A stretch of DNA of 64,000 bases from Candidatus Kaiserbacteria bacterium RIFCSPLOWO2_01_FULL_50_24. GTDB taxonomy: Bacteria; Patescibacteriota; Minisyncoccia; Phycocordibacterales; UBA2100. The position numbers were made by a program, and so were the translations under genes. Positions 53,661-57,104 of this stretch are shown here, piece after piece. The notes beneath the pieces were generated by a model, which saw only the letters and a list, made by a program, of their open reading frames with translations, had not been told where the DNA came from and did no database searches. Numbering within the stretch: the stretch's first letter is position 1; each line of letters starts with the position of its first letter. Where the stretch lies: contig MFLU01000016.1 of the NCBI GenBank assembly GCA_001783335.1, positions 688 to 64,687 on the forward strand, written 5' to 3'.

Positions 53661-55022
53661 CTATCCGGCGCTTTCATCAATTATTTTCCAGTCGTCTTTT
53701 TGTTTGCGCCGAATTGCATACACCGCGCCCGCGCCGAGAAGTGAAATAAGCGCGGCGCCCAACCACCACGCGTAGGAAACGCGCGTATCGGCCGTGCTTG
53801 CCGCCGCGAGTTGCGTAGTAGTAGCAACTGACTCCGCCTCGAACTCCGTATTTGTTTCCACTTCCGATTCCGATGTATGTACGCTGACTGACGGCGTAAG
53901 AGAGACGCGAGAGCTTGGTGCTTTAGTTTCGCTTACAAATGGCTCAATCGCCGTGTGAGCCGTTTTTGGCGGCTCTGTTTTCTCCACTTCCTTCACGCGC
54001 ACCGCGACAGCGCCACTCGGAAATTGCAGCTCCGCCTTTGCGGCTGCGTGAAAACGCAACAGTGTGGGTGAAAGACGCAGAGTAGCTCCCGGAAGAATCA
54101 CTGTGTGCTCCGGAAGAGTGAATGTGTGAAAATCCATAACGACGCGCCAGAGTGAAATATCGGCATTGCGTCTTCCTTTGTTTGAGAGTACGACGCCACC
54201 GTCTTCCGAAAGCGCGAGTGTGAGCTCCACCTCCTCTGCAACAACGGTAATGCGGTGCGTCGCGTACGCACCATAATGAAATACTTTGAGAACGACCGCA
54301 TAGCGCCCCGAGTAAAGAAAGCGGTGCGTGACCTCCTTTCCTTCCGCCGTCGTGCCGTCTCCGAAGTTCCATGTGTAGTGCACGTTCTCCATTGGTTTCT
54401 TCTTGTCGTCATGCGCCAGACCTATGAACGGCACATCCGTGCCGATGGTCACCGTTCGATTTTCTCCCGCCTGTGCGGTGAGCTTCATGTCGGATGTTTC
54501 GTATGTGGTGGATGTATCCGACGACGTTTGGGTTTGTTCTGTTTGTGTGTCTTCTTGCGGCTCGTCTTCTGTGGTTTGCGAAACGCCGCCACTTACCGTG
54601 ATGTGGTCTTTAATGTTGTTGAATGTCACTTCCCCAATTCCACTGACGTTCTTGATGTCTTCTATTGTAGCGAACGGACCGTGTTCGGTACGATAGTCAA
54701 TAATAGCTTGTGCTTTCACATCCCCGATGCCGGTTAGTGTCATTAGAGTAGCTTTGTCGGCAATATTTATATTGACAGCATGGTCGGCATACGCAAACGG
54801 CTGCACAAAAAGAAAAACGGCACACACCGCAAAAATTCCGTAGTATGTTCTGAAAACCCTCCGCTTCGTGAGGCGTACCTCTTCGGGGTCGCTGTCTGGG
54901 CTTGCTAGCCCAGCGCTCACTCTCGGCTCGTCAGCCTGCGAGAGACCCCGAAGAGACACGCCTCCTCGCTCCGGGTAAGCAAAGCTTTCCGGCAGCGCTC
55001 GTTCGGAAACGGAAAAATTCAT
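53661..55022 (-). CDS. Membrane-anchored ComEA-like helix-hairpin-helix DNA-binding protein with PKD domain and C-terminal TM helix
   Basis: HhH: VNINIADKATLMTLTGIGDVKAQAIIDYRTEHGPFATIEDIKNVSGIGEVTFNNIKDHI. PKD: YTWNFGDGTTAEGKEVTHRFLYSGRYAVVLKV. N-terminal signal anchor and C-terminal TM (WWLGAALISLLGAGAVYAI). The start is uncertain. Confidence 0.55.
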   Translation of the reverse strand: MNFSVSERALPESFAYPERGGVSLRGLSQADEPRVSAGLASPDSDPEEVRLTKRRVFRTYYGIFAVCAVFLFVQPFAYADHAVNINIADKATLMTLTGIGDVKAQAIIDYRTEHGPFATIEDIKNVSGIGEVTFNNIKDHITVSGGVSQTTEDEPQEDTQTEQTQTSSDTSTTYETSDMKLTAQAGENRTVTIGTDVPFIGLAHDDKKKPMENVHYTWNFGDGTTAEGKEVTHRFLYSGRYAVVLKVFHYGAYATHRITVVAEEVELTLALSEDGGVVLSNKGRRNADISLWRVVMDFHTFTLPEHTVILPGATLRLSPTLLRFHAAAKAELQFPSGAVAVRVKEVEKTEPPKTAHTAIEPFVSETKAPSSRVSLTPSVSVHTSESEVETNTEFEAESVATTTQLAAASTADTRVSYAWWLGAALISLLGAGAVYAIRRKQKDDWKIIDESAG

Positions 55023-55071
55023 TTTACCGTTTCGCTCACTCGTTTGCCGGTTAACAGTTTCAGAACATGCT

Positions 55072-56973
55072 TTAGCGTTCGCTTTCTTTTGAGTCGCGCA
55101 GAATACTGCGTAAAACTTCGGGAGAAACTTCTTTTGGTCCACTCTGGTCTTGCGGAGGAGGAGCCGCCTTGTGTACTGATTCGTCACGTTTAATTCGCTC
55201 GCGCAGTAGGTCTGCGGGAGATTTGTGCGGCTCGCCGTGAGCCCGAATCGGTTCACTTTTTGCTTTTTGAATAGCAGAGCGAAGCGCGTCGCGGTTGGCA
55301 AATTCTGCGTTGTCTCCCTGTTCTCCCTCGTCTCTTGGAGCCGATTCGGACTCACGGCGAACCGATTCGGGAGGACGTGGCGAAACGGAACGCATTGGTG
55401 CAACGGGCTCACGGCGAACAGACCCGCGAAAAGGCGCGTGCCCTTGAGAACTCTCGTGTTCGCGCCTTTGTTCTTCCCTATCTCTACTAAATGGCTCACG
55501 TTTTGGTGATTGTTCATACCGATCTCTCCTCTCTCCAATGTCTCGCGGAGGAGGAGATGCGCGACCATCATACCCCGACGAGCGCACAAAGTCCCGCGCG
55601 GGCGGCTTCCCCCCTCTGTCTCCTTGCCACTCTGCTCTTTCTCTCTTGAGAGGCGCGGGTGGTGGTCGGAATTCTGCCTGTCGCGCCGCAACAGCCGCTT
55701 CTACGTCTTCTCGCCGCTTGCCGAACTGTGTCCGTGAGAAGTTGACGACATCCTCGCGGTACGATACATCCGGCGTCTCTATCGGCGGAATGGTTTCTGC
55801 GGAAAAAGGCGCCGAGCCGACACCATCTATCATAAGCGTCAGATAAATTTGCCCGAGGCCGAGCCCCACGAGGTCTTCCGCCATAAAGGTCGGCTCAAAC
55901 ACGGTCTTCAAAACCTCCGCATCAAACGGCCCCACGCGAAAACAAATGAGTGTACCGATGTTGCCAAACACCGCATTGCGTACATTTTCTTCCATCTGCT
56001 CTATGTACTGGTTTGCAAGCGTGAGCGCGAGTTTGTATTTGCGCGACTCCGAAAGAATATCGGCAAACGCCTCGTTCATCATTGATTGAAACTCGTCAAC
56101 GTAGAAATACACGCGCGGCAAGCGCACCATACGCGCCTCCGGTTCGTCGGCGCGGCTCATCGCCGCTAAATAAATTTTAACCACAAGCATGCTCCCGAGA
56201 AGCGATGCGTTCGTTTCCCCCATGCGACCCTTTGAAAGATTCACGATGAGTATCTTTTTCTCGTCCATCATTTTGCGCATGTCAAACGACGATTTCGGCT
56301 GGCCGATGATGTTGCGTATCAAAGGATTCGCGACGAACTGGCCGATTTTGTTCTGTATCGCCGGTGTCGCCTCTTGCGTGTAGCGGTCGGTGTAGGTGGC
56401 AAATTCCTCCACCCAAAACGCGCGCACGACGGGGTCGTTTATTTTCTCCACCACCGCCTTCCGAAATTCTTTGTTGATGAGCATGCGGTTCACGTCCAAA
56501 AGCGTTGAACCCGGATACTCCAAAAGAGCGAGGAGCGTATTTTGTAAAATGTATTCCATGCGCGCGCTCCACGCGTCTACCCAAATGCGCTTCAGGGCAC
56601 CCATGAGGCCGGAGACGACGAGGTGGCGCTTGTCGTAGCCCACATCTTCCATCACGTTGAAACCTATGGGGTGGTCGGTATCAAACGGCGCGAAGTAAAG
56701 AACGTCTTTTATGCGCTCATGCGGAACGAAGTCAAGCAGTTTTTCCGCCGTGGAGCCGTGCGGGTCAATGTAGGCAATACCTTCACCATTCTGAATATCC
56801 TGAATCGCCATGTTCTCCAACATGGTGGATTTTCCCATGCCCGTCTTTCCGATAACGTAAATGTGCTTTCCGCGATCAATGGCGCGAATACCGAAAATCT
56901 CACGCTTCCCGCGCGTGTGCGTAGAGGCGAAATAGGTTATCCGCCGCTCGTCATCCTGATTATCAGGACCCAT
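55072..56973 (-). CDS. FtsK/TraD/VirD4-superfamily P-loop ATPase (DNA-translocase/coupling-protein-like) with about 230-aa disordered Arg/Glu/Pro/Ser-rich C-terminal tail
   Basis: Walker A VIGKTGMGKST. Walker B / FtsK-like YFYVDEFQSMMN. The tail is low complexity (RDREEQRREHESSQG...). Confidence 0.55.
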   Translation of the reverse strand: MGPDNQDDERRITYFASTHTRGKREIFGIRAIDRGKHIYVIGKTGMGKSTMLENMAIQDIQNGEGIAYIDPHGSTAEKLLDFVPHERIKDVLYFAPFDTDHPIGFNVMEDVGYDKRHLVVSGLMGALKRIWVDAWSARMEYILQNTLLALLEYPGSTLLDVNRMLINKEFRKAVVEKINDPVVRAFWVEEFATYTDRYTQEATPAIQNKIGQFVANPLIRNIIGQPKSSFDMRKMMDEKKILIVNLSKGRMGETNASLLGSMLVVKIYLAAMSRADEPEARMVRLPRVYFYVDEFQSMMNEAFADILSESRKYKLALTLANQYIEQMEENVRNAVFGNIGTLICFRVGPFDAEVLKTVFEPTFMAEDLVGLGLGQIYLTLMIDGVGSAPFSAETIPPIETPDVSYREDVVNFSRTQFGKRREDVEAAVAARQAEFRPPPAPLKRERAEWQGDRGGKPPARDFVRSSGYDGRASPPPRDIGERRDRYEQSPKREPFSRDREEQRREHESSQGHAPFRGSVRREPVAPMRSVSPRPPESVRRESESAPRDEGEQGDNAEFANRDALRSAIQKAKSEPIRAHGEPHKSPADLLRERIKRDESVHKAAPPPQDQSGPKEVSPEVLRSILRDSKESER

Positions 56974-57104
56974 GTGGACAGTATAAACCCTATCTGCAAT
57001 GTGGAGTAGTGAGATAAATTAAAAATTTAAATATCAAAATGAAAAATTACAGTTAAAAATTCAAAATGTCCGTTGCAAAACTATGGCGCACACAATCGTT
57101 AACA

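Follow-up and report, generated by a model that had tools for sequence, protein, structure and literature searches.

A soluble VirD4-like ATPase gene followed by a gene for a surface protein with alternating HhH and lamin-tail heads in Paceibacteria: a possible module for DNA handling

Why should an ATPase of the kind that couples DNA to conjugative secretion be encoded directly in front of a surface protein with a ComEA-type domain, in a chromosomal region of cell wall and glycan genes? The question is raised by two genes in a stretch of 64,000 nucleotides from Candidatus Kaiserbacteria bacterium RIFCSPLOWO2_01_FULL_50_24 (contig MFLU01000016.1), which as a whole will be called the window. 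Gene A (55072..56973) codes for a soluble VirD4/TrwB-like P-loop ATPase of 633 amino acids, as judged from the list of open reading frames (ORFs), Pfam, homologues and hydropathy, and gene B (53661..55022) for an exported surface protein of 453 amino acids with a C-terminal anchor; both genes, and all their features given below, are on the minus strand. An earlier note on this DNA had described them as a candidate DNA uptake or translocation module. Both genes are real and carry the domains that were described. The ATPase is a translocase of the VirD4/VirB4/HerA class and the helix-hairpin-helix (HhH) domain passes the ComEA profile TIGR00426, so that neither of the two outcomes named in the note as refuting it has come about; the interpretation as DNA uptake or translocation is partly supported. 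The bacteria of the Candidate Phyla Radiation (CPR, Patescibacteria) lack the ability to synthesise nucleotides, and it is believed that they rely on hosts and on DNA from outside. The analysis presented here indicates that A and B form a conserved, housekeeping, CPR-specific module, and its parts suggest that DNA is handled at the surface of the cell; uptake of DNA is a plausible reading of what can be deduced from the sequences.

The ATPase

Gene A starts with an ATG at 56973 and ends at 55072 (633 codons). The protein has a core, residues 1-405, and a disordered tail, residues 406-633. Read from the sequence, the Walker A motif is GKTGMGKS (residues 42-49; 56827..56850) and the Walker B region is YFYVDEFQ (residues 289-296; 56086..56109), which sits within YFYVDEFQSMM (residues 289-299). 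Among 127 sequences which are 42-88% identical, G42, G45, G47 and K48 of Walker A are invariant, and conservation reaches 90% or more at D293, E294, F295 and Q296. Three Pfam families match above their gathering cut-offs: TrwB_AAD_bind (PF10412; 1.6e-9, 37.6 bits, cut-off 20.5), T4SS-DNA_transf (PF02534; 7.9e-7, 28.7 bits, cut-off 20.1) and TraG-D_C (PF12696; 3.6e-5, 24.1 bits, cut-off 22). The description of the ATPase as FtsK-like is right at the level of the superfamily and does not hold for the family, since FtsK_SpoIIIE scores 12.7 bits against a cut-off of 24. DUF87/HerA is likewise below its cut-off (17.9 bits against 23.2), and the TraD/VirD4 models of NCBIfam give partial matches far below theirs (TIGR03743 51.6 against 366, NF045973 41 against 250, TIGR03754 34.3 against 647). 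A profile search of the PDB sequences gave marginal P-loop matches, with TrwB at an E value of 0.09.

The fold was predicted twice. A full-length model built from 36 close homologues was not usable, with a predicted local distance difference test (pLDDT) of 46 and values mostly below 50 in the tail. When residues 1-440 (55654..56973) were remodelled with the 127 sequences spanning 42-88% identity, the pLDDT was 94.8 and the predicted template modelling score (pTM) 0.92. The model consists of an N-terminal beta hairpin, a RecA-like nucleotide-binding domain, an all-alpha domain inserted into it (helices at about residues 113-237) and two helices after the core. A Foldseek search with this model placed TrwB at the top (E 2.7e-13, query template modelling score, TMq, of 0.62, about 440 aligned columns), followed by HerA, Cag-beta and DotL. 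The values from comparison with single structures were 28.6 for the C-terminal domain of VirB4, 27.5 for the C-domain of DptH, 26.6 for TrwB, 23.6 for DotL, 23.5 for HerA and 17.1 for FtsK, the last with 217 residues aligned. Both the all-alpha insertion in the nucleotide-binding domain and the overall fold of TrwB are present. By this model gene A belongs to the VirD4/VirB4/HerA branch, with a helical insertion as in coupling proteins. It shows neither the motor match nor the fold of the FtsK/SpoIIIE translocases, and neither the central-domain match (DUF87/HerA) nor the NurA partner of HerA.

Hydropathy predicts no transmembrane (TM) helix in gene A; the maximal Kyte-Doolittle average over 19 residues (KD19) is 1.44 and no 19-residue window exceeds 1.6, and the core begins already at residue 11. 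True coupling proteins have a membrane domain at the N-terminus, and this protein has lost it.

The closest relatives of gene A are all from Patescibacteria (Kaiserbacteria, Parcubacteria, Paceibacteria). More than 8000 matches were found, with a core that is 80-88% identical in many of them, and an exhaustive search gave 5,713 cluster representatives at E <1e-30. For a survey of loci we fetched 80 GTDB loci in which the ATPase is 63-87% identical, bringing the total at that point to 85 loci. The core is intact throughout the 80 GTDB loci and is under extreme purifying selection. A search with PADLOC matched mad8 of the MADS defence system (2.6e-18 over residues 32-377); in that system mad8 goes with further mad genes, a methyltransferase among them. 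The assignment was rejected, since the surroundings are housekeeping genes in a synteny found across the class, and neither gene B nor the two toxin-antitoxin ORFs match another defence component of PADLOC. Homologues with 34-37% identity to P0254, which served as the query, are broken up into short ORFs in L099 (6001-7140) and L102 (6001-7194) when read with genetic code 11, which may be due to stop-codon recoding (e.g., code 25 as in Gracilibacteria/Absconditabacteria) or mean that they are pseudogenes.

The tail (residues 406-633; 55075..55758), identified by composition and by the pLDDT of the model, was put at roughly 230 amino acids of low complexity in the earlier note; it is 228 residues long and rich in R, E, P and S (38, 28, 26 and 23 residues). 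Its length varies among relatives, and the ATPases of the different loci are from about 520 to 810 amino acids long. At the end of the tail is a conserved peptide, KEVSPEVLRSIL (55099..55134), which fits the family consensus P-K-E-[VI]-[PS]-E-[DE]-V-L-[RK]-K-[VI]-L; the terminal peptide of gene A in the window reads PKEVSPEVLRSIL. The position frequencies come from the 196 of 376 sequences caught by the regular expression, and the peptide is also found in 45%-identity cluster representatives. The peptide is probably a docking motif.

A core followed by a variable disordered linker and a conserved terminal peptide is also the architecture of FtsZ. Gene A might in that case be a DNA translocase with a housekeeping function that is held at the divisome by a tether, an analogue of FtsK or SftA recruited by its peptide as FtsZ is by its own, and gene B would be unrelated to it or only loosely related. 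The high identity of the core across the GTDB loci and the place of the gene beside murC and murD would suit such a function, and E-[VI]-P-E-D-V-L-R-K-I-L is loosely like the end of the CPR FtsZ, ...DDLDIPAFIRRKMK (...DIPAFIRRK). However, the two motifs can be matched only with a shift of one residue and without the key Phe, and the FtsK_SpoIIIE score is far under the cut-off. An ftsK gene has reportedly at least been discussed for Saccharibacteria TM7x. We regard the idea as speculative and quite unlikely to be right. In one locus (L094, 2529-3821, minus strand) the CPR FtsZ ends with ...EEEDDLDIPAFIRRKMKDREEDK.

In a second subfamily of the ATPase, with a core 45-50% identical, a TM helix at the N-terminus is combined with DUF8128, which is either fused to the core or encoded by a separate upstream gene. 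Its members often end in a zinc ribbon; in the loci examined they lie near MnmA and SecDF (L090, L098) or near SecDF (L089), and they have no gene B. The N-terminal extensions of about 400 amino acids in some relatives were considered as a fused gene B, in a Rosetta-stone manner, and this was rejected when they proved to be the TM helix and DUF8128. The fused form is seen in P0302 and the separate upstream gene in L090, where it matches the fused N-domain with an E value of 3e-55. At both L089 3996-7397 and L090 8672-12046, where this subfamily is encoded, a Sigma70_r4/HARE-HTH protein lies upstream and SecDF is nearby.

The surface protein and its head domain

Gene B begins with an ATG at 55022, 49 nt past the stop of gene A, and the ORF ends at 53661. 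A GTG at 54920 may be the true start, since the homologues begin about five residues ahead of the hydrophobic core. The N-terminal stretch (KRR, a hydrophobic core and an AYA/DH site; residues 53-79, 54786..54866), seen in hydropathy and alignment, had been taken for a signal anchor. A cleavage-type site AxA/DH is kept in 10 of 11 aligned homologues, and the stretch is thus probably a cleaved signal peptide. The mature N-terminus is a ComEA-type (HhH)2 domain (residues 81-142; 54597..54782), with HHH_3 at 2.7e-19 and 69.5 bits (cut-off 27) and TIGR00426, the HhH region of ComEA, at 71.7 bits against a cut-off of 53.1. It is followed by a PKD domain (residues 183-249; 54276..54476; PKD_4 2e-13 for residues 183-248, PKD 9.4e-11) with a WNFGDG motif that is invariant in the alignment of homologues, and by a second beta-sandwich (about residues 255-345; 53988..54260). 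The latter is like a lamin-tail domain (LTD); the Pfam LTD match is weak (0.0067, residues 277-318), and many homologues have a second LTD-profile match at this position. A low-complexity linker leads to the C-terminal TM helix WWLGAALISLLGAGAVYAI (residues 419-437; 53712..53768; KD19 1.70 at residue 419), which is conserved in the alignments. The ComEA-type HhH, the PKD domain and the C-terminal helix had all been named correctly from the letters of the sequence. Gene B has this one TM helix, no nuclease domain and no match to SLBB (PF10531).

After the helix comes an acidic cytoplasmic tail of 16 residues, RRKQKDDWKIIDESAG (53664..53711), with the conserved motif [DE][WFY]x[IM][IV][DE]. Most of the relatives with a tail share this motif (EWDIIEE, DFEIIE and, in the distant locus L092, EYRIIDETN), and some carry a different one. 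The tail looks like a docking peptide.

About 80 homologues combine HhH and PKD, with identities of about 30-43%. In the public annotation of a Candidatus Kaiserbacteria RIFCSPHIGHO2 genome (P0121) the gene B protein is a "hypothetical protein" of 275 amino acids starting with MKLTAQAG. This start removes the signal peptide and the HhH, although no stop interrupts the ORF in either of them and the complete architecture is seen in homologues.

The ORFs of the surveyed loci were searched for gene B with our own profiles, made from the module from PKD to TM helix, from the HhH region and from the LTD of L001. B-like genes were found in 42 of the 85 loci, and they differ in the N-terminal domain: it is an LTD in about 32, a ComEA-type HhH in 8 and not recognised in 2 or 3. 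When the head types are placed on a rough neighbour-joining tree built from the ATPase core, the LTD is found in the deepest branches, and the HhH loci are scattered among LTD sisters; L008 (HhH) is beside L009 (LTD), and the window, with HhH, is near L069 and L007, both with LTD. Such interleaving implies that HhH has repeatedly taken the place of the LTD on a constant scaffold of PKD domain, sandwich and TM helix.

The HHH_3/ComEA repeat is a dedicated module for non-specific binding of double-stranded DNA. An alternation of LTD and duplicate HhH has been described for secreted bacterial DNases, where the authors read it as analogous DNA binding (PMC4486849). In the nuclease ExeM removal of the LTD lowers the activity in vitro, and the role of the domain is unsettled (PMC6085458). 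By analogy with these enzymes the head of gene B would bind DNA in both its LTD and its HhH form.

Adjacency of the two genes and what it may mean

Is the pairing a property of the family or of one contig? Every one of the 42 B-like genes is the immediate downstream neighbour of gene A on the same strand. Among the loci with enough downstream sequence B is next to A in 39 of 76, or in 41 of 76 when L021 and L077 are counted, in which a short HhH-only protein, confirmed by Pfam, takes the position of B. In two of the loci, L001 and L005, A and B as called share 14-20 nt. Three loci have flanks which are unrelated to the usual surroundings of mur, rsmI and GT4 genes: L091 with a mechanosensitive channel and a degenerate ATPase paralogue upstream and DUF5667 and a sigma factor downstream, L092 with HisRS, MreB and TGT upstream, and L093 with RecR upstream. 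In all three an LTD-PKD-TM protein directly follows the ATPase. That the adjacency is found in three unrelated contexts argues for a real functional link, which is not obligatory, and the pairing proposed for the window is thus real beyond it. The fast-evolving orthologues L086 and L087 also keep an LTD-PKD-TM protein directly after the ATPase. P0364 and P0379 (38-44% identity), sought as orthologues outside Paceibacteria, turned out to evolve fast but to belong to the same synteny block, and a metagenome scan with P0254 gave 10 loci only.

The only locus examined in which A and B are physically apart is L003, where about 800 nt with a weak Pfam match to an IS200-like Y1 transposase (7243-7911, minus strand) lie between the ATPase and an HhH-type B. 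The paralogue in L091 (8627-9961, plus strand; 444 amino acids, E 1.9e-38 to the ATPase core) is immediately upstream of the intact ATPase. Its degenerate Walker A, GRPRTHKSE, suggests that in this lineage the ATPase has a pseudo-ATPase as partner.

The usual surroundings are themselves conserved. Five annotated relatives have in common the order murD-(murI)-murC-rsmI-small TM protein-DUF4015-A-B-epimerase-GT4, and the block murD-murC-rsmI-DUF4015-A-B-epimerase-GT4 is shared across Paceibacteria as a chromosomal, housekeeping synteny. Three long or chromosome-level records, CP066682.1, CP174359.1 and OY969413.1, contain the locus.

The explanation we tentatively put forward, and which we hold to be possible and no more certain than that, is a chromosomal two-gene module conserved in the Paceibacteria lineage of CPR, in which B captures DNA at the surface and A is a motor of the VirD4 class, with the channel elsewhere. 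The product of gene A would be soluble, a member of the VirD4/VirB4/HerA class that is presumably assembled as a ring. Gene B would be a Sec-exported type I membrane protein with a distal head that binds double-stranded DNA non-specifically, HhH in the window and lamin-tail in most relatives; the PKD domain, the LTD-like sandwiches and the low-complexity linker would hold this head off the membrane. Extracellular DNA would be captured by B at the cell surface and A would supply the ATP-driven step at the cytoplasmic face. The ATPase might be brought to the membrane by the cytoplasmic tail of B, or by its own C-terminal peptide on another partner, and the conduit, ComEC or a VirB6-like channel, would be encoded elsewhere. 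The contact between A and B, the assembly of A into a ring, the direction of transport and DNA as the ligand of the LTD form are what we infer in this scheme.

Several observations weigh against such a module. Nearly half of the Paceibacteria loci have no B, and in these the epimerase or GT4 gene comes straight after A; B must thus be called accessory, and the ATPase can do without a B beside it. GT4 (48 of 63 loci with room for the gene), rsmI (41 of 59) and DUF4015 (40 of 65) are as common beside A as B (39 of 76) or commoner, and murC is found in 30 of 50. With other neighbours equally or more frequent, the adjacency within the clade could be inherited gene order. The C-terminal peptide of A occurs with or without B, and its presence does not track B; it therefore probably binds something other than B. 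A minority of the B proteins stop at the TM helix and have no cytoplasmic tail. What bacterial LTDs do is unproven, and membrane targeting is another function that has been suggested for them (PMC6085458). In the cultivated Saccharibacterium Ca. Southlakia epibionticum the VirD4-like gene, of a subfamily possibly different from that of A, is given as not essential in the passages on these genes in PMC12102498. Finally, the window was screened with Pfam on 20 ORFs (the ten nearest neighbours and ten others of 323-736 amino acids; three of the 20 had no match), and the remaining ORFs were judged by eye from their translations; among these no relaxase, integrase, VirB4, VirB6, pilin or ComEC was found in the 64 kb. 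The earlier note had asked whether comEC, pilin or VirB-like genes occur in the genome, and within the window, as screened, the answer is negative. It had also considered a DNA import or export device made of the two proteins; with one TM helix in B, none in A and no ComEC or VirB6 in the partly screened 64 kb, A and B are not a self-sufficient device.

Alternatively, the two genes might have independent functions and their adjacency be inherited, A being the coupling or assembly ATPase of the Patescibacteria type IV secretion system (T4SS) or of another secretion machine encoded elsewhere and B a separate ComEA-like receptor or surface protein. The whole block shows class-wide synteny, in which other neighbours are at least as constant as B; B has been lost in many clades, the C-terminal peptide of A is independent of it, and t4cp genes distant from virB4 are, according to the relevant passages of PMC12102498, also known in other systems. 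This main rival is nevertheless somewhat doubtful. It does not account for the three loci in which the adjacency survives while all other flanks differ, for the overlap of the called genes in L001 and L005, or for the finding that no B-like gene of the surveyed loci lies anywhere but immediately downstream of A; and A is without the N-terminal membrane domain by which coupling proteins normally join a T4SS.

The screen and the synteny also bear on the suggestion that the locus is the remnant of a decayed conjugative or integrative element. The ATPase does match the Pfam families of coupling proteins, and a ParE toxin and a putative antitoxin are encoded immediately upstream. Against this stand the absence of relaxase, integrase, VirB4 and VirB6 from the screened ORFs and of any tRNA gene from the window, the even G+C across the region, the same housekeeping synteny in dozens of species, and a core that is 63-87% identical, intact throughout and under extreme purifying selection. 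VirB4, VirB6 and relaxase were not seen in the annotated loci of the relatives either. The suggestion is already contradicted by these data and can hardly be upheld.

With a DNA-handling module as the working explanation, an orphan VirD4-like ATPase, which according to the passages concerned in PMC12102498 is present in thousands of Patescibacteria genomes away from a T4SS, becomes the subject of a testable hypothesis. The hypothesis rests on the lost membrane domain, the conserved terminal docking peptide, the repeated pairing with a surface protein, and a tip which alternates between two domains of DNA-binding type. If the link to DNA handling is true, it would be a new use of a conjugation coupling ATPase and evidence that bacterial lamin-tail domains bind DNA; if not, the pair is still a marker operon with two short motifs that can be used in the search for partners.

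Surroundings in the window and known systems

Upstream of gene A the window has murD, murC, an ArsR-type regulator, rsmI, DUF4015 and the ParE toxin with its putative antitoxin; downstream of gene B are the epimerase, GT4 glycosyltransferases and a very large glycan-synthesis cluster. By Pfam the ten nearest neighbours of the pair are housekeeping or glycan genes. The 131-nt spacer upstream of gene A (56974..57104) has 30.5% G+C and phased T-tracts, at offsets 24, 38, 45, 58, 65 and 79 of the coding strand, which form two interleaved series about 20-21 nt apart. It had been described as an AT-rich promoter region with phased A-tracts. The composition and the phasing stand; the tracts on the coding strand are of T, and the promoter scan gave no convincing sigma-70 consensus in the spacer, the lone match on the minus strand overlapping the start codon. 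The spacer is a candidate promoter or curved-DNA region. An Rfam scan of 53000-58000 gave no match.

The epimerase gene follows B after 55 nt, and there is no predicted terminator between B and the epimerase and GT4 genes. From this order one might propose that B is mainly an adhesin, or binds the wall or a host, and is part of an operon with glycosylation genes. The target of A would then be B or the envelope, with A controlling, for example, the display of B through its tail, and DNA would not be the ligand. GT4 is the most constant neighbour of A, CPR bacteria are epibiotic, and PKD and LTD are common in surface and carbohydrate-associated proteins, with membrane targeting by the LTD proposed in PMC6085458. 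However, it is the HHH_3/ComEA repeat, a DNA-binding module, which replaces the LTD in several places of the tree. The proposal also asks for a VirD4-class ATPase that acts on glycans or on Sec-exported adhesins, and none is known. We consider it improbable.

The epimerase/dehydratase (52085-53605, minus strand) has 506 amino acids and an extra C-terminal part weakly like the N-domain of GT4 (Glyco_trans_4_4, residues 366-476). Epimerase ORFs of 483-503 amino acids follow the ATPase in L016, L029 and L034, and versions of about 290 amino acids are found in other relatives. Most of the window, from about 2400 to 53600, is one very large region for surface-glycan biosynthesis, assigned with Pfam in part. 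It contains many GT4 and GT2 genes, several epimerases/dehydratases, a flippase, a UDP-sugar dehydrogenase, a GtrA-methyltransferase fusion, two AsnB-type amidotransferases (11953-13827 and 25247-27118) and two large polytopic membrane proteins without Pfam match (9575-11422 and 19636-21846). Three small winged-helix paralogues of ArsR/MarR type with the motif NHRR[IL]..L (60046-60312, about 44788-45060 and 23572-23877, all minus strand) are scattered over the mur and glycan region, and a similar regulator is found among the glycosyltransferase genes of L087 (6567-6842).

The ParE-family toxin (97 amino acids, PF05016 4.8e-10) and the overlapping putative antitoxin of 103 amino acids lie between DUF4015 and gene A (57105-57673, minus strand). 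In the Adlerbacteria locus L005 a small ORF and a ParE-like toxin are at the equivalent position (5763-6259), which suggests a toxin-antitoxin insertion that is shared or recurrent across orders. Between rsmI and DUF4015 a 69-amino-acid protein with two TM helices by eye is encoded (59107-59316, minus strand). An equivalent ORF of about 76-86 amino acids is found in all annotated relatives, and directly before the ATPase where DUF4015 is absent (L002, L004).

How does the pair compare with what has been described? Quinonero-Coronel et al. (2025; PMC12102498) found 5,713 VirD4-like genes in 2,918 Patescibacteria genomes, of which 148 are near virB4; in the passages concerned no function is assigned, and it is stated that exaptation cannot be excluded. 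These orphan coupling-protein homologues are very probably the same gene family as A. The passages of that paper on coupling proteins do not contain the LTD/HhH partner, the loss of the membrane domain, the C-terminal peptide or the split into a short and a DUF8128-associated subfamily, and no description of the partner, the absent membrane domain or the terminal peptide was found in the literature passages at hand or in full-text searches for lamin tail domain with CPR or Patescibacteria; nor did a paper on gene exchange in Patescibacteria, searched by terms, mention the pairing.

Like the type IV coupling proteins VirD4, TrwB, TraD, DotL and Cag-beta, gene A has a RecA-like domain with an all-alpha insertion and a C-terminal extension, possibly for docking; the tail of TraD binds TraM. 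Unlike them, it has no N-terminal TM domain, is not encoded with VirB4, VirB6 or a relaxase, and is chromosomal, class-wide and extremely conserved (63-87% across the sampled loci). It is only 14-16% identical to the solved coupling proteins. Compared with the C-terminal domain of VirB4, the C-domain of DptH (DndH) and HerA, it is without the N-terminal domain of VirB4, the Dnd/Dpt genes and the NurA partner.

The com system of CPR has been described as ComEC, DprA and ComFC, and a motor ATPase is not named (PMC10633639). Gene A could be an exapted coupling-protein homologue that serves as this missing cytoplasmic motor for DNA uptake, a functional analogue of ComFA. The conserved tail of a ComEA-like receptor of inverted topology, with HhH or LTD, would recruit A, the peptide of A would bind a second partner such as ComEC or ComFC, and an ATPase derived from a T4SS would run in the import direction without a T4SS. 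This more specific proposal we hold to be unlikely.

Gene B resembles ComEA in its (HhH)2 domain, which passes TIGR00426, and in being membrane-tethered and facing outward. Where ComEA is anchored at the N-terminus, gene B has the inverse topology: the signal peptide is probably cleaved off, the C-terminus holds the protein in the membrane, and the HhH lies at the distal, N-terminal end. Gene B also has additional sandwiches, PKD and LTD-like, and no SLBB. The full-length comE model TIGR01259 gives 73.5 bits against a cut-off of 152.35, from the HhH part only, and no comEC is nearby. In the secreted DNases (PMC4486849; for ExeM, PMC6085458) LTD and HhH alternate in exported proteins as they do in B, and PKD domains also occur; unlike these enzymes gene B has no nuclease domain, is anchored in the membrane and carries a conserved cytoplasmic tail.

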